From the NCBI GenBank assembly GCA_910586295.1, contig CAJUGE010000090.1:1-62217 (forward strand): a stretch of DNA of 62,217 nt, read 5' to 3'. The DNA is from an uncultured Bacilli bacterium (GTDB lineage: Bacteria; Bacillota_I; Bacilli_A; RF39; UBA660). Positions within the stretch are counted from its first letter, which is position 1, and each line of letters opens with the position of its first letter. Below are positions 1 to 62,217 of this stretch, one piece after another. Position numbers and translations under genes: made by a program. The notes beneath the pieces were generated by a model, which saw only the letters and a list, made by a program, of their open reading frames with translations, made no database searches and was not told where the DNA came from.

Positions 1-112
1 GACTAGGGGAATTTAGGCCTGTGGAGGGTGAGAACCCGAAGAAGCAGGAAAAGAGAGTTGTGAAGCTCTCCAAAATGAGTGAATTATTACGTAGTTTTAA
101 TTTACTTTTGTT
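1..112 (+). mobile_element. Right end (RE) of an IS200/IS605-family tnpB element that lies mostly upstream of the window; probable omega-RNA scaffold region
   Basis: nt 1-55 and 80-112 align with 19224-19310 (gactagg..gcct..gagg..aggaaaagag / tgaattattacgtagttt..ttttgtt). Copy 1 has an extra 24-nt hairpin block at 56-79. The window's right edge carries the matching left end plus a tnpB start. Confidence 0.45.
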
Positions 113-143
113 CTATAAGAAAGTCATACTTAAATTTTTTTAA
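3..143 (+). CDS. Possible 3' end of a tnpB CDS (5'-partial); the true stop is uncertain
   Basis: Frame 3 is open from the window edge to a TAA at 141-143, which is unusual for AT-rich DNA. It reads LGEFRPVEGENPKKQEK..., reminiscent of the CGE-x-VRP...KQE tail common in TnpB/OrfB proteins. The ORF runs past the apparent repeat boundary at 112, so the end is doubtful. Confidence 0.25.
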   Translation, partial: LGEFRPVEGENPKKQEKRVVKLSKMSELLRSFNLLLFYKKVILKFF

Positions 144-160
144 GTGATGCGAAAAAACGT

Positions 161-189
161 TTGACACACTAACAAACGTATGTTATCAT
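161..189 (+). promoter_or_regulatory. Sigma-A-type promoter upstream of the acetyltransferase gene
   Basis: TTGACA (161-166), 17-nt spacer, TATCAT (184-189). Confidence 0.5.
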
Positions 190-209
190 TAATGTGGGAG
201 TGAGATAAA

Positions 210-956
210 ATGAATGAATATGTAAATTTAACATTAGAAAATATTGATGAGGAACATATATGTTGCGCTATTGGGGATAAAAAACACCAAGTAGGTGTAG
301 AATGTAAGAAGAATTGGATTAAAAGCAAAATGAATGAGGGGCATGTTTTTAGAAAATTGAATGTTAGAGGGAAAGTTTTTATAGAATACGAGCCAATAGA
401 AACTGCTTGGGTGCCTATAATAGGAAAGAATTATGAATATATTTATTGTTTATGGGTAGCAGGAAGTTATAAAGGAAAAGGTATTGCTAAAGAATTACTT
501 GAATATGCAATAAATGATTCTAAGGAAAAGGGCAAGAGTGGAATATGTACGTTAACTTCTAAAAAGAAAAAACCTTTTATAGGGGAAAAACAGTTCTATC
601 TTCATTATAGATTTAAGGTTGTAGATGAAATAGGAGATTATGAATTATTAGCACTTCAATTTGATGATAATAAAACACCTAAATTTAATGATAATGCTAG
701 AAATATGAAAATAGATAGTGAAGACTTTACAATTTATTATAGTAACGAGTGTCCTTATGTAGAGTATGAAGTAAAAGAGTTATCTGAATATGCAAAAGAA
801 AAAAATATTAAAATTAACTTTATAAAAATAGATACACTGGAAAAAGCCAAAAATGCTCCTTGTATATTTAATAACTGGGCTAATTTTTATAAGGGAGAGT
901 TTATATCAAATACCATACTAAATGCTAATTCATTTGAAAAAATGATTAATAAATAA
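210..956 (+). CDS. GNAT-family N-acetyltransferase with a YoaP-like C-terminal domain
   Basis: Acetyl-CoA-binding-type motif WVAGSYKGKGIAKELLEYA. The cysteine-containing C-terminal half (ECPYVEYEVKEL...APCIFNNWANFYKGEF) resembles YoaP-like domains. Confidence 0.7.
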   Translation: MNEYVNLTLENIDEEHICCAIGDKKHQVGVECKKNWIKSKMNEGHVFRKLNVRGKVFIEYEPIETAWVPIIGKNYEYIYCLWVAGSYKGKGIAKELLEYAINDSKEKGKSGICTLTSKKKKPFIGEKQFYLHYRFKVVDEIGDYELLALQFDDNKTPKFNDNARNMKIDSEDFTIYYSNECPYVEYEVKELSEYAKEKNIKINFIKIDTLEKAKNAPCIFNNWANFYKGEFISNTILNANSFEKMINK

Positions 957-6946: not shown

Positions 6947-8329
6947 ATGAAATTAGATATAAAAGAATTACATGAAAGATATCAAGAATTATTAAATAAA
7001 GAAGTAATAGTTGAAGGTTGGATTAAAAGTCATAGGCGTCAAAAGGACTTTGGGTTTATAGATTTTACTGACGGAACTTGTTTTAAAAGTATTCAAGTGG
7101 TATATACTAGTGAGCAAACTTCATTTGAAGATATATCAAAAATGGCTATAGGTTGCGCAATATGTGTAGAAGGAACTTTAATTGAATCAGAAGGTTCTGG
7201 ACAAGAATACGAAATTAAAGCTTCGAATATTACATTGTTAGGTGGAGTAGATGATGATTATCCGCTTCAATCAAAGGGTAGGCCCACTAGAGAATTTTTA
7301 AGAGAAGTAGGACATCTTCGTCCTAGAACAAATCTTTTTAATGCAGTATTTAGAGTTCGTAGTGTAGCTGCATTCGCAATACATAAATATTTCAATGAAA
7401 ATGGATTTGTTTATTTTCATGCTCCTATAATAACTGCAAGTGATTGTGAAGGTGCTGGAGAAATGTTTCAAGTAACAACTCTTGATTTGGATAAACTTAC
7501 AGGACAAAAGGAAGTACCATACGATAAAGATTTTTTTGGCAAAAAAGCAAGTCTTACGGTGTCTGGACAATTAGAAGCTGAGACATTTGCATTAGCTTAT
7601 AAAAAAACTTATACATTTGGTCCTACTTTTAGAGCGGAAAACTCAAATACTAAGACACATGCTAATGAATTTTGGATGATAGAGCCAGAAATGGCATTTA
7701 CTGATTTAAATGGTGATATGGATGTAATGGAATCTATGTTAAAATATGTAGTAAAATATGTTCTAGATACTTGTTCAGATGAGATGGAATTTTTTGATAA
7801 ATTTGTAGAAAATGGATTACTTGCTAAACTTCATAAACTAATTAATAGTAGTTTTACAAGAATAAAACATGAAGACGTGATAACAATTCTAAAAAACGCG
7901 GATGTGAAATGGGAATTCCCGCCTGAATATGGAGAAGATATAGCCAAAGAACATGAAAAATATATAACAGAACACTTTGATGGACCAGTTTTTATAACAG
8001 ATTGGCCTAAGGATATAAAAGCATTTTATATGAAACAAAACCCAGATGGAAAAACAGTTGCAGCAGTGGACTTAGAAGTGCCTGGTGCTGGAGAACTAAT
8101 GGGTGGTTCTCAAAGAGAAGAAGACTTTGATAAACTTACTAATAGAATGAAAGAACTAGGACTTCCGTTAGAAGAAATGAAATGGTATACTGACCTTAGA
8201 AGATTTGGAGGTTGTTATCACTCAGGATTTGGAATGGGGTTTGAAAGATTACTTATTTATATAACTGGTGTGGAAAATATAAGGGATGTAATACCATTCC
8301 CAAGAACGCCAGGAAATTGTGAATTTTAA
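6947..8329 (+). CDS. asnS: Asparagine--tRNA ligase
   Basis: Class IIb aaRS motifs (FRAENSNTKTHANEFWMIEPE; GGSQREE; GFGMGFERL). The 460-aa length and N-terminal OB fold are typical of AsnRS. Confidence 0.9.
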   Translation: MKLDIKELHERYQELLNKEVIVEGWIKSHRRQKDFGFIDFTDGTCFKSIQVVYTSEQTSFEDISKMAIGCAICVEGTLIESEGSGQEYEIKASNITLLGGVDDDYPLQSKGRPTREFLREVGHLRPRTNLFNAVFRVRSVAAFAIHKYFNENGFVYFHAPIITASDCEGAGEMFQVTTLDLDKLTGQKEVPYDKDFFGKKASLTVSGQLEAETFALAYKKTYTFGPTFRAENSNTKTHANEFWMIEPEMAFTDLNGDMDVMESMLKYVVKYVLDTCSDEMEFFDKFVENGLLAKLHKLINSSFTRIKHEDVITILKNADVKWEFPPEYGEDIAKEHEKYITEHFDGPVFITDWPKDIKAFYMKQNPDGKTVAAVDLEVPGAGELMGGSQREEDFDKLTNRMKELGLPLEEMKWYTDLRRFGGCYHSGFGMGFERLLIYITGVENIRDVIPFPRTPGNCEF

Positions 8330-18434: not shown

Positions 18435-18968
18435 ATGGCAAATAGAGAAATAAGAAGAAAACAGAAAATTGATAATATAGTTAATGAAGTAGAAGAGATA
18501 AAATTAAGAGATTCAATAATTATAATTTTTGTAATTGGATTAGTAGTTATTATAGCTTATGGATTAACATTACTAGCAAGACATGTAGGACTATTTGATA
18601 TAAGGTATATAAAACCAGAAGTTAGTTCTGCAACAATAAATTATGAAAATATATTAGCTGGAACTATTTTTAGTAGAGAAGAAAACGAATATTATGTTAT
18701 GATAGGTAACTTTGAGAGTAATGAAAGTGTTTATTTGGGGAGTTTAGGACAGTTATATAAAAATAAAAGTGGTGATAAACTTCCAATTTATGCAGTGGAC
18801 TTAAGTGAAGGCTTAAATAAAATGATAATAAGTGATTCATCAAATTCAAGTGCGCAGACAGTATCGGATTTAAAAATAAATGGTCATACTTTAATAAAAG
18901 TCAGCGGTGGAAGAAATGTTAAATACATTGAAGGGGACGAAAACATAAAAATCGAGTTAGGTATATAA
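18435..18968 (+). CDS. Membrane-anchored hypothetical protein
   Basis: ATG 18435 with the SD gagg. Basic N-terminus, one TM (IIIIFVIGLVVIIAYGLTLLA), then a soluble domain of about 120 aa. Confidence 0.5.
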   Translation: MANREIRRKQKIDNIVNEVEEIKLRDSIIIIFVIGLVVIIAYGLTLLARHVGLFDIRYIKPEVSSATINYENILAGTIFSREENEYYVMIGNFESNESVYLGSLGQLYKNKSGDKLPIYAVDLSEGLNKMIISDSSNSSAQTVSDLKINGHTLIKVSGGRNVKYIEGDENIKIELGI

Positions 18969-19031
18969 AAATATGGTTCTCTGGATTCTGTTGTGAAGCA
19001 ATTTTCAAGGAACAATCCATAATTAAAGGAA

Positions 19032-19075
19032 AAAACAGGTATTTATAATATTCAAATTATTTTTACCTGTTTTTA
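19032..19075 (+). terminator. Rho-independent terminator
   Basis: aaaacaggta...tacctgtttt stem with an inner ataat/attat stem, followed by a T-run. Confidence 0.65.
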
Positions 19076-19310
19076 TATAATATGAAAGTTATGCTAAGAT
19101 AGACATGAGGCTCAGTTATAGAAAGAGACATAAATTTTAGTTTGAATTTAATATATGAAGGAATGAAGTTATTACTAGAAGTGTAAAAGGCGCTTTTAAA
19201 TATAGATAAAAAGATACCCTAGTGACTAGGAGAGTTTATGCCTTTAGAGGACGAGAGTTAGGTGAAGTAGGAAAAGAGTGAATTATTACGTAGTTTAATT
19301 TATTTTTGTT
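19070..19310 (+). mobile_element. Miniature, tnpB-less derivative of the IS200/IS605-type element (LE + RE/omega-RNA-like end, about 240 bp)
   Basis: 19070-19100 matches the LE-like sequence at 62059-62090 (tttttatataataNgaaagttatgctaaNat). 19224-19310 matches window nt 1-112. No ORF lies between them, and a remnant reading LGEFMPLEDES* parallels LGEFRPVEGEN at nt 3-35. Confidence 0.5.
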
Positions 19311-20043
19311 AATTTATATTGAAGTTGTTTAGATACTCTTTATAAGCTTTAATCTCAGTTGTTCTGTTGAACATTTTTAGCTTATACTTTTTATTTTTTT
19401 GTTTCATAATATTTTTAACAATATAATTAGTAAAATAAGGATTTCTTATATAAAATGGGCCTAGAAGATAAGTAGCATAGAAATTTTTATAAAGATAACC
19501 TTCTTTAGTTGCATTAGGAATTGAACCTGTACCATCAATTACTTTAAACAAAGGCTTATCTATACCATAAATAATACCAATTCGATTTTGAAAACCAATT
19601 ATCTTATCTTTAATTAATCTAGTCTTAAAAACTGAACTTCCTACAATCCTTATGCTTTCGTGAATTGTATAATAAGGAAAAATATCTAAAGCTTTGATAT
19701 TTTCTTTTTGTTCATTAATTATATAAGTGCCAAATAACTCTATAGAATTTCCAGTAATTAAAAAGTGTTTTCCTTTATTAATAGCTTTTTTTATGTCATC
19801 TTTATATTGTTTTATATCCTCTAAAACTAACATTTCACTATGCTCACTACCCATTCCTATATAAAATAAATCGTAAGAGTCAAAATCAATTTTATCGCCA
19901 ATAGTAAGAAAATGAATGTCACATTTAATATCTTGTCTTTCAATAAATCTCTTTAAAGCACGGACATTTCCATTCTCCCCATACAAATTCATTAAATCAT
20001 AATATAAATGTGCTATCTTAATTTTTGGCATTAATATCACCAT
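19309..20043 (-). CDS. gatD: Lipid II isoglutaminyl synthase, glutaminase subunit GatD (CobQ-type amidotransferase)
   Basis: Class-I glutamine-amidotransferase-like, about 240 aa, overlapping the end of murT. This is the characteristic murT-gatD pair. Confidence 0.75.
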   Translation of the reverse strand: MVILMPKIKIAHLYYDLMNLYGENGNVRALKRFIERQDIKCDIHFLTIGDKIDFDSYDLFYIGMGSEHSEMLVLEDIKQYKDDIKKAINKGKHFLITGNSIELFGTYIINEQKENIKALDIFPYYTIHESIRIVGSSVFKTRLIKDKIIGFQNRIGIIYGIDKPLFKVIDGTGSIPNATKEGYLYKNFYATYLLGPFYIRNPYFTNYIVKNIMKQKNKKYKLKMFNRTTEIKAYKEYLNNFNIN

Positions 20044-21364
20044 CTTTCTTTAAAAGTGCTTTAAGTTCTATTTCTTTATCAAAACAAACACAACTATAAA
20101 TATTACCTTTGGTTTTATTTCTTAAAATTGTAAGTAAATCATTTTCTAAGTTTTCAACTAGCAAAATTTTTGATTTATCTATTTTGGCATATTCCATTCT
20201 AGTAAGCATATCATATTTAAATCTACCAACTAATACTATCTTATCTATTGATTTGTGGGTTAAGTCTTCAAAGTCAATATCCCAAATCCAACTTATATCA
20301 TTTTCACTATATCTTCTACTAGAATTATCGAATCCAAGAATAACAGTCTTTCTTCCTGGTTCATTTACAATAAAATCTAAAGATTGCTTATAACTTAAAT
20401 TATTTTCATTTTTACTTGCTAACATTTGCCACATTCTATTATCAAAATTATAAATATTAAGTCTCTTAGGCTTAAAAGCATCATCATTAATAACGTTAAG
20501 AATAGAGTTACTACTTAATCCAAGCTCACTTGTAAGAGCGTAACTGGCGATGACAAAATATACTGAGTAAAGAAAATTAGAGGGAAGACTTACTTTTTCT
20601 TTATTTATAAAGATTGTGCCTTTAACAACATTAATGTTATGTGCAAGATAATCTGGGTTTTTACGGCCCCATTTGCATTTAGGACAACTATAGTCTCCTA
20701 TATGTCCATAATTATAATAACTGTATTTGAGTTTGCTATTACATTTAGGACAATAAGAACCATCCAAATTATTTAGATTAGACTTAGTAGAGTAGTTGTT
20801 TTTATCTATTCCATAAGTTGTAAGTTTGCCTTTATGATTAATCGAAAGTGCATTAACAAGAGGATCATCTACATTAATAATAAGGTGTGTATTATCTTTT
20901 ATAATATTACGTATAACTCTTTGAATAAATTCTGGATGAGCATTTCTAGGAGGCTGGTCTCTAGTAATATTTGTAATAACTAAGTGTGTCAAATCAAAAT
21001 ATTTCAAACTATTACCTGAATGTCTCTCATCTAATTCCATTAAAAGAATATCTCCTTTTAATTTACCGCTCCAAGTAGAGTTATTTAAAATTAAGCTAGC
21101 AATAGCAGAAGTAACGTTACTTCCATTTTTATTATAGATAACCTTATAACCGTTCTCATTTAATATTTTAGCTACTAATTCTGTAGTACTACCTTTACCA
21201 CTAGAACCTGTAATTCCTATAACATACTTAGGCATTTTTATTTTGCTTAATACTCTAGGAGATATTTTAAGAGCGACATACCCTCCAATAACACTTCCAT
21301 CGCGCCTAATAAGTTTTGCTAACTTAGTTGCAAGTTTACACATAAATATACTTAAATATTTCAT
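20018..21364 (-). CDS. murT: Lipid II isoglutaminyl synthase, Mur-ligase-like subunit MurT
   Basis: Mur ligase P-loop (GITGSSGKGSTT), a Cys4 ribbon (CPKC...CPKC) and a DUF1727-type C-terminus. Confidence 0.8.
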   Translation of the reverse strand: MKYLSIFMCKLATKLAKLIRRDGSVIGGYVALKISPRVLSKIKMPKYVIGITGSSGKGSTTELVAKILNENGYKVIYNKNGSNVTSAIASLILNNSTWSGKLKGDILLMELDERHSGNSLKYFDLTHLVITNITRDQPPRNAHPEFIQRVIRNIIKDNTHLIINVDDPLVNALSINHKGKLTTYGIDKNNYSTKSNLNNLDGSYCPKCNSKLKYSYYNYGHIGDYSCPKCKWGRKNPDYLAHNINVVKGTIFINKEKVSLPSNFLYSVYFVIASYALTSELGLSSNSILNVINDDAFKPKRLNIYNFDNRMWQMLASKNENNLSYKQSLDFIVNEPGRKTVILGFDNSSRRYSENDISWIWDIDFEDLTHKSIDKIVLVGRFKYDMLTRMEYAKIDKSKILLVENLENDLLTILRNKTKGNIYSCVCFDKEIELKALLKKDGDINAKN

Positions 21365-27713: not shown

Positions 27714-28058
27714 ATGGATGAAAAAAGTATACTAAAAGAAAGAGAACAAAAACTAGAAGTAATAAAAGAAAAGTTTAAGAAACAATTAGATGAGTACTTT
27801 AGGAGATTTGAACAGATATCTGAAAATACAGAGTTAGATGATTTTGAGAGGCTTTGCCAGTTAATTTCTATTTACTATAAAATAGACGAGCTTACAAATT
27901 TTTGCACTTTTCTGAATCAAAGATGTATTATATATTTATTATCACAATTAGAATCTACGAATTATCAAGGACTAAGCGAGGAAGAAAAATCGGAAATAGA
28001 AGAATATAGAAAACTATTAACAGATGATAGGGGAGATAATCATGGATTTGGAAAGTAA
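27714..28058 (+). CDS. Hypothetical coiled-coil protein
   Basis: ORF with the SD agggg. Helical and charged. Confidence 0.4.
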   Translation: MDEKSILKEREQKLEVIKEKFKKQLDEYFRRFEQISENTELDDFERLCQLISIYYKIDELTNFCTFLNQRCIIYLLSQLESTNYQGLSEEEKSEIEEYRKLLTDDRGDNHGFGK

Positions 28059-45506: not shown

Positions 45507-47189
45507 ATGCAATTTGAAATGCCAATATTTAAAGGAATAAAAAGAAAGAAAAAAGAAGGATTTATTAGTGAATTATCAGACGAACTAGTAAACGTAGAAA
45601 TAATGATAAGTAATATAGAGAATAGTGAAATCTCTATAGATATAGAACAAGAGAAATTAGAATTAGATGAGCTAAGACAAGAAATTGATGCTAATTACAT
45701 TACTAGTGAAAAAGTAGGTACTTCTATAATAGGTGTTTATCAATCTATGACTGATAAATTAATGAATATAAAATCAAGAATAATAAAATATGAAAGTTTG
45801 ATATTATTAATGAATAAGGCTTATTACTTAGAAAATGCATGTAAAAGTGGAGAAGTTGCGAAAGATTTTAATTCATTTGTTTCACTATGTTTAGAGATAC
45901 TTACAGATTTGGATAAAATAAAAGTAAGTATTGTATCAAAATATAAAGATTCATACGAGAAAATATATAGAATAATTTATGAATTTATAAAAATAGAAAT
46001 ATCTCATACTTTAGAAAGTAAAGTTTTAGAAAGTTTAGTGAGTCAAAAAACAGCTGTTTATTATATTAATAATATAATGAGAGATGAAATAAACAATATA
46101 AAAGAGCGTACATTCAATAACCCTAAATTAATAAGTAGACTTGATATGCTTACAAATAAGAATACTTCTTCTAGCTTAGCAAGCGATATTGTTAGCAAAG
46201 ATGTCATATTTACGATAGTACTAATTACAAATGAAGAAGAAGTAATGAAATCATTAAACAGTAAAATGGATGGTATCAGAGTGCAATATAGTGAAAATTT
46301 AGAAGAGATTAATTCCTATTTATATTCTAATTCTGGTTCTGATGATCCTGTTGGTAAGATTGTACAAAGTAAAATAGATTTAGAACATCATAGGCAACAA
46401 TTAAAAGAAACAAATAAAGAATTAAAGAAAAAACTTATAGCACTTATTATTTCAACTACACTAGTAACAGCCATAGGTCTAAACTTGCCTTCTATAGGTA
46501 AACATTTTAATACTAAATATGTAACAACTACTGAAATTTATGAAACAGGAAAAGAGCCTATTTCATTATCTTCGTATGAAGAGAAAGCTAGTGATATAAA
46601 GAGAACATTAGATATTTATAGTGAAACGTATGAAGATTGGGGAAAAACTTATACAGACTATAAAAAATATGATGTTACAGATGTAATTATAGAAAGTGTG
46701 AGTGAAGAAGATTATCTATATATAGATGTTGATTCCTTTGGTTTAAAATCTTATGACTCAAGGCAAGAAAATGTTACAGAAGAATCAAAAGAAGTAAGAC
46801 AACTTACAGTAGTAAAACAAGACCATGTAAACGGGAGTATTTTAGATGAAGATGATTATAGAACTTTTCTTATAATTGCCTATTTAGTTCTTGCTTTTGA
46901 ATCAATATGGGAAACAATTGGCCCATTAAATAACTTTATAAAGTGTATAAAATTAATTAATGATGGTGATTCAAGAGCTACATTTGTAAATATATTTTAT
47001 GAAGAGTTAAGAAAACTAATTAAAGAGTGTGAAAAATATATAAAATCTAACAAAGATTTAGAAGCGGAATACTACAGTATTTATGATGAATTAAAGTACT
47101 TAACTACAGAAGAAATTGAAGATAAGTTAAAATCTTTAACTGTACAAAACAGTGAATATAAAAAAACTTTAAAGGCTTATAAGGAGTAG
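45507..47189 (+). CDS. Array paralog 2 (same family)
   Basis: 4-nt gap from paralog 1. KKKLIALIISTTLVTAIGL (TM1), KYVTTTEIYE, DYLYIDVDS, LTVVKQD, FLIIAYLVLAFESIWETIGPL (TM2). Confidence 0.7.
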   Translation: MQFEMPIFKGIKRKKKEGFISELSDELVNVEIMISNIENSEISIDIEQEKLELDELRQEIDANYITSEKVGTSIIGVYQSMTDKLMNIKSRIIKYESLILLMNKAYYLENACKSGEVAKDFNSFVSLCLEILTDLDKIKVSIVSKYKDSYEKIYRIIYEFIKIEISHTLESKVLESLVSQKTAVYYINNIMRDEINNIKERTFNNPKLISRLDMLTNKNTSSSLASDIVSKDVIFTIVLITNEEEVMKSLNSKMDGIRVQYSENLEEINSYLYSNSGSDDPVGKIVQSKIDLEHHRQQLKETNKELKKKLIALIISTTLVTAIGLNLPSIGKHFNTKYVTTTEIYETGKEPISLSSYEEKASDIKRTLDIYSETYEDWGKTYTDYKKYDVTDVIIESVSEEDYLYIDVDSFGLKSYDSRQENVTEESKEVRQLTVVKQDHVNGSILDEDDYRTFLIIAYLVLAFESIWETIGPLNNFIKCIKLINDGDSRATFVNIFYEELRKLIKECEKYIKSNKDLEAEYYSIYDELKYLTTEEIEDKLKSLTVQNSEYKKTLKAYKE

Positions 47190-61893: not shown

Positions 61894-62022
61894 ATGAAAA
61901 CTTATAAAAGAAATTTGCCAGATGGCGTTAGAAAAATTTTTACTCTTGAAAGAGGAGTAAAAGTTAAAGTACTAAATAAAAAGTACTATGATAAAAAGAA
62001 AAAAGTAGCAAATGTAGCGTAA
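61894..62022 (+). CDS. Possible 42-aa basic protein (not in the ORF track)
   Basis: TGaTATAAT at 61861-69. Strong SD ggagggagag 4 nt before the ATG. A terminator follows. Confidence 0.35.
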   Translation: MKTYKRNLPDGVRKIFTLERGVKVKVLNKKYYDKKKKVANVA

Positions 62023-62033
62023 ATCTCTTAAAG

Positions 62034-62065
62034 AATAAGTAGAAGATAATTCTACTTATTTTTTA
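62034..62065 (+). terminator. Rho-independent terminator
   Basis: aataagtagaa / ttctacttatt 11-bp stem, gataa loop, T-run. Confidence 0.7.
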
Positions 62066-62168
62066 TATAATAAGAAAGTTATGCTAAAATTCAAAAAAAC
62101 AAAAAAATGTTTGACAATCATATATTTGCTATGTTACACTTGATTTATGGTAAAGGAGGCATGGTATT
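62059..62168 (+). mobile_element. Left end (LE) of an IS200/IS605-family tnpB element
   Basis: 62059-62090 matches 19070-19100. It is followed by TTGACA, the SD aaaggagg and the tnpB start. Confidence 0.5.
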
Positions 62169-62217
62169 ATGATGATTAATAAGGCTTATAAATTTAGGTT
62201 ATATCCAAGTGATATGC
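62169..62217 (+). CDS. tnpB: TnpB (IS605 OrfB-type RNA-guided endonuclease), 3'-partial at the window edge
   Basis: MMINKAYKFRLYPSDM matches the highly typical TnpB N-terminus (xxKAYKFRLYPxxxQ). Confidence 0.6.
   Translation, partial: MMINKAYKFRLYPSDM

Follow-up and report, generated by a model that had tools for sequence, protein, structure and literature searches.

Beside gatD in the genome of an uncultured low-GC Bacilli bacterium, which occurs in many mouse-gut metagenomes, lies a stretch of about 240 bp that resembles both ends of a TnpB element with almost nothing of tnpB between them. Is it a guide-RNA locus that works with a TnpB made elsewhere, a miniature that can still move, or what is left of one decaying copy? 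An earlier reading of the letters alone (the sequence-only reading) had proposed the first two. Here, "the window" is the whole stretch analysed (62,217 nt); it is an entire contig (C90) of a 1.9-Mb assembly with 108 contigs and 27.6% GC. We use "mini" as a working name for the tnpB-less remnant adjoining gatD (19070-19311, ~237-241 bp). C plus a number denotes a contig of the same assembly and G plus a number another genome, G004 and G008 being of the same genus.

A tnpB element family and its tnpB-less derivative

Both ends of the window break within copies of one repeated tnpB element. A full subfamily-A copy was reconstructed from C73 and C101 via a perfect 122-nt overlap, and its ORF encodes 385 aa with the domains OrfB_IS605 (PF01385), Cas12f1-like TNB (PF07282) and HTH_OrfB_IS605 (PF12323). 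The protein ends in ...KPIQV, with the stop at GTG-TAA. The family is tnpB-only, IS200/IS605-type (IS1341-like). In full copies the tnpB promoter reads TTGACA-N17/18-TGTTACACT; in the copy at the right edge of the window, TTGACA lies at 62111-62116, followed by the extended -10 TGTTACACT. At least three full copies of subfamily A lie at contig ends, and one subfamily-B copy is fully assembled (C95:12047-13311). A search of 200 family genomes gave matches in only three other genomes. In a scan of named genomes, the best TnpB identities were 61-62% (rabbit-gut Bacilli MAGs) and 37% (Bacillus cereus group), and the right ends of the rabbit-gut relatives gave no alignment. The features of the window referred to below are as follows.

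1-113, plus strand: 3' end of a full-length copy (RNA scaffold and RE, last 113 nt), 100% identical to C52:5556-5669 and cut by the contig end
19030-19074, no strand assigned: older bidirectional terminator AAAAAACAGGTA ... TACCTGTTTTT, whose T-tract at 19070-19074 (or to 19075) is the insertion target and presumptive TAM, TTTTT(A)
19075-19100, plus strand: LE remnant, the first ~26 nt of the element
19101-19186, plus strand: deletion junction and tnpB 3' remnant, with an in-frame 18-nt deletion inside
19101-19311, plus strand: homologue of the omega-RNA scaffold (tnpB 3' end to RE terminus), with 19 of 30 consensus pairs kept
19161-19168, plus strand: GAATGAAG, 5' strand of a tentative long-range helix with the RE terminus at 19304-19311
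19217-19231, plus strand: helix H1 (CCCTAG-TGA-CTAGGA), closing pair broken
19241-19271, plus strand: two-tier helix (outer CCTTT...GTAGG, inner GGAC...GTTA), one break per tier
19275-19276, plus strand: site of a 24-nt deletion that removed a GAGAG...CTCTC helix
19277-19304, plus strand: RE subterminal hairpin AGTGAATTA ... TAATTTATT, weakened by T at 19303 (C in the family)
19304-19311, plus strand: RE terminus TTTTGTTA (family consensus TTTTGTTC); 19309-19311 is also the gatD stop codon on the minus strand
19309-20043, minus strand: gatD (GATase_3), overlapping murT (20018-21364)
19312-19327, plus strand: would-be guide ATTTATATTGAAGTTG, the flank just 3' of the RE, antisense to the final gatD codons
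62060-62217, plus strand: LE, promoter and first 16 tnpB codons of another copy, with the ATG at 62169 and the contig end cutting it off

The two repeats that drew attention to mini are real. As the sequence-only reading had noticed, positions 19070-19100 repeat the sequence upstream of tnpB at the right edge (29/31 identical to 62060-62090; E 1.6e-6 in a whole-genome BLAST), and its match of 19224-19310 to window 1-112 extends to 19224-19311 against 1-113, with 74 matches and 12 mismatches. The LE segment also occurs at C51, C33 and further loci, and the LE alignment covers nine copies. The homology extends across all of 19101-19311, which corresponds to the last ~250 nt of full copies; the same search gave E 3e-47 against C101. 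Against the C73+C101 composite, 188 bases of mini match and 22 do not, with gaps of 18, 24, 1 and 1 nt.

This alignment changes the picture of what lies between the two ends. The ~120 nt that had been taken for mere spacer are the tnpB 3' end, its stop codon and the RNA scaffold. At 19112-19186 mini keeps 24 in-frame codons, SVIERDINFSLNLIYEGMKLLLEV, including the RuvC-III motif DRD(I)NA, followed by TAA at 19184-19186; the equivalent of the GTG-TAA at the TnpB stop is 19181-19186. The peptides LGEFRPVEGEN and LGEFMPLEDES, previously read as an intact and a decayed TnpB C-terminus, lie downstream of the true stop and are therefore translations of the non-coding scaffold, not protein. Mini contains no ORF of 40 aa or more. 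These comparisons support mini being a tnpB-less derivative of a TnpB (IS200/IS605-type, tnpB-only) element. An internal deletion of ~1.1 kb is present, which took the promoter and nearly all of tnpB, together with the ribosome-binding site that follows the LE in full copies. What remains is ~26 nt of LE plus the final ~210 nt (the 24 tnpB codons, stop codon, scaffold and RE).

Pieces of both ends survive, as originally claimed, but their being in working order is not supported. The LE is reduced to its first ~26 nt. The family RE ends in TTTTGTTC, with the terminal C in 10 of 12 members, and mini's last base differs (TTTTGTTA). Family members carry an RE hairpin in two sequence versions, 7-8 nt before TTTTGTTC (z -2.3 and -4.5); folded as single-stranded DNA, this hairpin reaches -2.2 kcal/mol in subfamily A and -4.5 kcal/mol in subfamily B, and only -0.2 kcal/mol in mini. 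DNA folding gave no significant LE hairpin in any family copy or in mini.

Insertion behind murT-gatD and variation among mouse-gut samples

In two genomes of the same genus (G004 and G008) the flanking genes are kept but lie merely 20-40 nt apart. Their empty sites read terminator hairpin, TTTT(T) and then directly AATTTATAT. The filled site in the window has the identical hairpin, then the element, then AATTTATATTGAAG, and comparison with both empty sites reveals no target-site duplication. The element boundary is certain to within 1-2 nt, giving a TAM of TTTTT or TTTTTA, and the LE flanks of all copies end in a T-tract. The empty sites in these sister species imply that, when the element arrived on the terminator's T-tract, this terminator and the gatD stop codon overlapped already. 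The comparison shows that the element inserted onto this T-tract, between an unknown gene and murT-gatD, without target duplication and later than the split from the sister species. Positions 19070-19074, first counted as part of the element, are the TTTTT of the terminator and belong to the target. The observation that the gatD stop codon abuts the repeat boundary is confirmed as an overlap, and it has a simple cause: the TAA pre-existed as T-tract plus A. The terminator flank has an MFE of -14.6 kcal/mol, within the top 0.7% of genomic TTTTTA sites.

Two further points of the sequence-only reading are supported: the surviving region corresponds to the omega-RNA, and the 3' end of gatD would serve as the guide. 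This guide has a single perfect match in the genome, which is its own site, and TTTTT(A) plus the guide is exactly the empty site of the sister species. A TldR-like regulatory use was considered and rejected, as there is no second perfect target and the lone site with one mismatch has no T-tract TAM. A second filled/empty comparison, at the C95 copy, did not narrow the LE boundary, since the flanks of this copy sit on separate contigs in the relatives.

A position behind a terminator is not peculiar to mini. All seven subfamily-A LEs examined directly abut intrinsic terminators of the form A-tract/hairpin/T-tract (window 62020-62065 and 19030-19075; C73:~1250-1290; C71:~18440-18490; C51:~27880-27925; C33:~7000-7050; C18:~46480-46535), and by folding energy each flank ranks among the top 0.5-4% of 3000 TTTTTA sites from the genome. 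The pattern points either to a target preference for terminators or to insertions surviving only there.

An LE-like stretch (ATAAGAAAGTCATACTTAAA) also follows straight after the left-edge RE, within window 114-210, and is itself followed by a tnpB-type promoter (CGAAAAAACGTTTGAC ... GTATGTTATCATTA). This promoter resembles those of the C95 tnpB copies, and the gene that it now precedes, which starts at 210, is not a tnpB. LE-like stretch and promoter are arranged likewise behind the C101 RE (C101:820-960). This may reflect tandem re-use of one TAM, or LE and promoter remnants that drive host genes.

All mouse-gut samples examined carry mini with identical indels: contigs of four DNA metagenomes and of several RNA-type runs span the site. 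The empty-site joint that excision would leave (TTTTT(A) joined to ATTTATAT) was not seen in these samples. There is, though, a second haplotype, differing at 19190, 19260, 19275, 19303 and sometimes 19252. Apart from 19252, these changes go toward the family consensus; C at 19260 restores a pair and C at 19303 restores the RE hairpin. At both positions the window haplotype has the derived state, which breaks pairing. Within 701 bp there are 4-7 SNPs, of which 3-5 fall inside the 241-bp mini. This raised density indicates relaxed constraint or, possibly, occasional gene conversion.

The predicted family omega-RNA and its state in mini

To model the RNA, we aligned 12 tnpB-3'/RE regions, of which this genome supplied nine, G001 two and G195 one. 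The RNAalifold consensus has 30 pairs in five helices, and 15 of the 30 pairs show compensatory changes. With the structure fixed, 95.3% of cells are paired (82.0 ± 1.3% in shuffles), and the observed number of covarying pairs and covariation score were matched by none of 500 shuffles. Pairing falls to 38-55% in a slid control, in which the 3' partners were moved by 1-3 columns. The covariation is carried by H1, the inner tier of H2, and a helix that is GAGAG/CTCTC in some copies and CCAAAC/GTTTGG in others; H1 (CCCTAG/CTAGGG vs GGGCGG/CCGTCC) is the best-covarying helix of the family. On the opposite strand, several of the conserved G-U pairs would turn into C-A, so the structure belongs to the tnpB-sense (plus) strand. 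In this model, the tnpB 3' end and RE of the family fold in the way an omega-RNA should. Between the tnpB interior and the RE terminus (GAATGAAG with 19304-19311), a long-range helix may also form; it shows no compensatory changes in the 12-member alignment.

In its position, the predicted family RNA is like the omega-RNA (reRNA) of IS200/IS605 elements such as ISDra2: structured, it would start within the tnpB 3' end, run to the RE and take its guide from the flank. Three helices are supported by covariation in the family, whereas mini has lost 11 of the 30 pairs. Comparison with curated RNA families came back empty. Rfam 15 gave no relevant match, either for the whole window at gathering score or for the local region at E up to 10, and the family RNA matches no Rfam family by sequence or covariance model. 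The sole Rfam match, a SodC thermometer on the terminator, was dismissed as chance.

How much of this structure does mini retain? Of its 11 lost pairs, seven went with one deleted helix, and each other helix has one break: G-A at the RE terminus (19311), C-A closing H1, and U-U and G-A (the latter at 19260) in the two tiers. The deleted helix lay in the 24-nt GAGAG/CTCTC block. The sequence-only reading had correctly seen this block in window 1-113 and its absence from mini, but took it to be peculiar to that copy; every full-length copy has it. Threaded onto mini, the consensus structure reaches -4.1 kcal/mol, against -12 to -28 kcal/mol for nine of ten other copies; the tnpB-less fragment on C6 is similarly poor (-1.6 kcal/mol). 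A covariance model was built from ten training copies, of which seven come from this genome, with mini left out. It gives the training copies 112-141 bits and mini 77.5 bits; the 5'-truncated copy at window 1-113 falls between them at 98, and three further fragments reach 48-66. A G001 copy attached to a full tnpB (L033) itself lacks the inner helix, so the loss of a helix alone is no proof that mini is inactive.

As for transcription, no plus-strand promoter is predicted at mini, and the terminator lies immediately upstream. The LE does hold a TATAAT hexamer (19076-19081), from which weak transcription could start. Sparse contigs of RNA-type runs (Logan) cover mini; they are unstranded, and may stem from the gatD 3' UTR or from DNA. 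One such contig, of 990 nt, links gatD with mini.

On the minus strand, the antisense of H1 followed by TATCTTTTTA (19231 to 19217) is terminator-like, and an equivalent site exists in all full copies. It could block transcription entering the element, and in mini could end the murT-gatD mRNA ~80 nt past the stop codon.

Origin of mini, alternatives and meaning

Taken together, mini is probably the remnant of a single tnpB-only IS200/IS605-type copy that lost its core in situ and has been drifting since. A full element would have inserted on the terminator T-tract beside gatD, and the ~1.1-kb core would then have been deleted in place, not ahead of a transposition. From then on the remnant would have drifted; it would no longer yield a competent guide RNA, and has probably ceased to be a substrate for transposition. 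Its present effect would be mainly passive: a murT-gatD 3' UTR about 240 nt longer, with antisense-element sequence before the old terminator.

The rest of the genome gives this history its context. Internal-deletion derivatives of the family occur at C33:7044-7736, C84:134-529, C84:20912-21238, C95:16159-16744 and C6:5136-5487, each with a different junction; C18 and C51 carry LE-only fragments and C32 an RE-only one. The junction between LE and 3' region in mini has no second occurrence in the genome. Such unique junctions point to a graveyard of copies decaying in situ, not to an amplified miniature family. A generic intergenic or REP-like repeat, the refutation that the sequence-only reading had itself envisaged, is ruled out, as all loci that match are tnpB copies or pieces of such copies.

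Two of these loci deserve mention in their own right. At C95:16159-16744, an internally deleted tnpB has its own promoter and an in-frame mini-ORF of 109 aa, in which the N-terminal 14 aa are fused to the zinc-ribbon/RuvC-III tail. Its omega scaffold is almost intact (29/30 pairs, 112 bits). As a nuclease-less guide-RNA locus, it is a stronger candidate than mini at 19070. On the minus strand at C32:9920-10051 there is an isolated RE/omega-like fragment (48 bits), without tnpB or LE; the start codon of a penicillin-binding-protein-like gene follows 35 nt beyond its end. Mobile-element content is unusually high for the clade, with 17 resolvase-domain matches (mostly large serine recombinases) and about 12 TnpB-element ends, and the assembly (1.9 Mb) is larger than genomes of the same genus (0.7-1.5 Mb, some incomplete).

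Some observations sit less easily with a drifting remnant. The surviving piece coincides closely with the omega-RNA region, and four other internal-deletion derivatives retain at least the last ~216-340 nt; the survival of this region in mini and four derivatives may be due to selection for the RNA and not to chance. Of the two haplotypes, the second has been preserved better, and across samples the element is fixed, no empty allele having been seen.

One alternative is a stand-alone omega-RNA locus, in which a plus-strand RNA from mini would be processed and loaded by the TnpB of full-length copies. The complex might cut the empty terminator/gatD junction upon excision and so keep mini in place, or might add a guide to the TnpB pool. 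The concept is established, since PATEs often encode omega-RNAs on which the TnpB of other elements acts in trans (Meers et al. 2023, PMC10055086), and the genome does hold intact tnpB copies of the same and of a sister subfamily. The retained segment covers the whole covarying scaffold up to the RE, the guide and TAM-like TTTTT(A) recreate the exact empty site, and at least one full-length relative also does without a helix. Even so, we consider a working locus of this kind unlikely. Its promoter is deleted with no other predicted and a terminator directly upstream, every surviving helix is broken in addition to the one lost, and the covariance-model score is far below those of intact copies. 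SNPs are denser than around it, with derived changes that break pairs; the RNA-type contigs over mini would fit such a transcript, but they may also be gatD 3' UTR or DNA. The PATE-like elements of Geobacillus stearothermophilus (PMC10055086) are a close parallel: they too lack a protein, keep the RE that encodes the omega-RNA and are proposed to rely on TnpB in trans. However, they have conserved ends, a cognate active TnpA and expressed omega-RNAs, whereas mini has a degraded scaffold, no promoter and no cognate TnpA found in its genome.

A broader version of this idea we think quite unlikely. It would have mini, especially the better-preserved haplotype in other mice, transcribed from the TATAAT of the LE or by read-through, guiding TnpB in trans and protecting its own position at the murT-gatD terminator; the family would home to the T-tracts of intrinsic terminators and leave behind guide-only loci that are selected.

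Perhaps the host has instead put the remnant to use as a cis element of murT-gatD, with antisense H1 and its T-run terminating or stabilising the mRNA within a minus-strand 3' UTR. The terminator-like match ~80 nt beyond the gatD stop codon is one where shuffles give 0.1, the remnant is fixed in the species, and the 990-nt contig joins gatD to mini. This appears improbable nonetheless: at 6 bp the hairpin is short, and one of its pairs has become a mismatch; the old strong terminator persists 150 nt further on, sister species manage with a terminator right behind the stop codon, and the raised SNP density argues against constraint.

Least probable of all is that mini is a mobilisable miniature, or PATE, excised and re-inserted as a 240-bp unit by a TnpA acting in trans on both ends. 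Such elements do arise this way: in Haloquadratum, core-deleted IS605-type elements become PATEs, and in one of them some of the C-terminal region of tnpB is left (Dyall-Smith et al. 2011, PMC3119063). Like mini, those PATEs are non-coding, have neither inverted terminal repeats nor a target duplication, and derive from a tnpB (IS1341-type) element by internal deletion. They form a multi-copy family in a haloarchaeon, however, while mini is a singleton with a unique junction in a low-GC gut Bacilli bacterium, and in mini no near-terminal palindrome was found at the left end, and the one at the right is degraded. The altered terminal base and weakened hairpin of the RE also count against mobility, as does the lack of a significant LE hairpin in family or mini, despite the parts of both ends that are kept. 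A search for Y1 TnpA, suggested at the outset, did find genes: two intact (C39 and C84) and one partial (C77), all IS200-like and none adjoining tnpB. The ends of these resident elements are GC-rich hairpins unrelated to those of the tnpB family, and no cognate TnpA sharing the family ends was found in the genome (assembly 92% complete). The original proposal that mini could be mobilised in trans gains little support: there is no second copy of the same structure in the genome, no strain-specific insertion in the metagenomes examined, and no empty-site allele in the four DNA metagenomes. An IS607-type element with a serine-recombinase TnpA was rejected as well, since none of the 17 resolvase-domain matches adjoins a tnpB copy.

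The best reading of mini is that of an ordinary TnpB insertion-sequence fossil whose guide-RNA-coding tail is visibly decaying. As both the core deletion and the omega-RNAs of PATEs are already published, it is a degraded example of a known element type, and on its own carries little weight. What is now defined, for an uncultured mouse-gut Bacilli lineage, is the family around it: its ends, its likely TAM of TTTTT(A) and a covariation-supported model of its omega-RNA. Intact, internally deleted and decayed copies side by side in one genome show the helices drifting first after tnpB is lost, and the seven subfamily-A LE flanks examined, all right behind intrinsic terminators, amount to a testable target preference.
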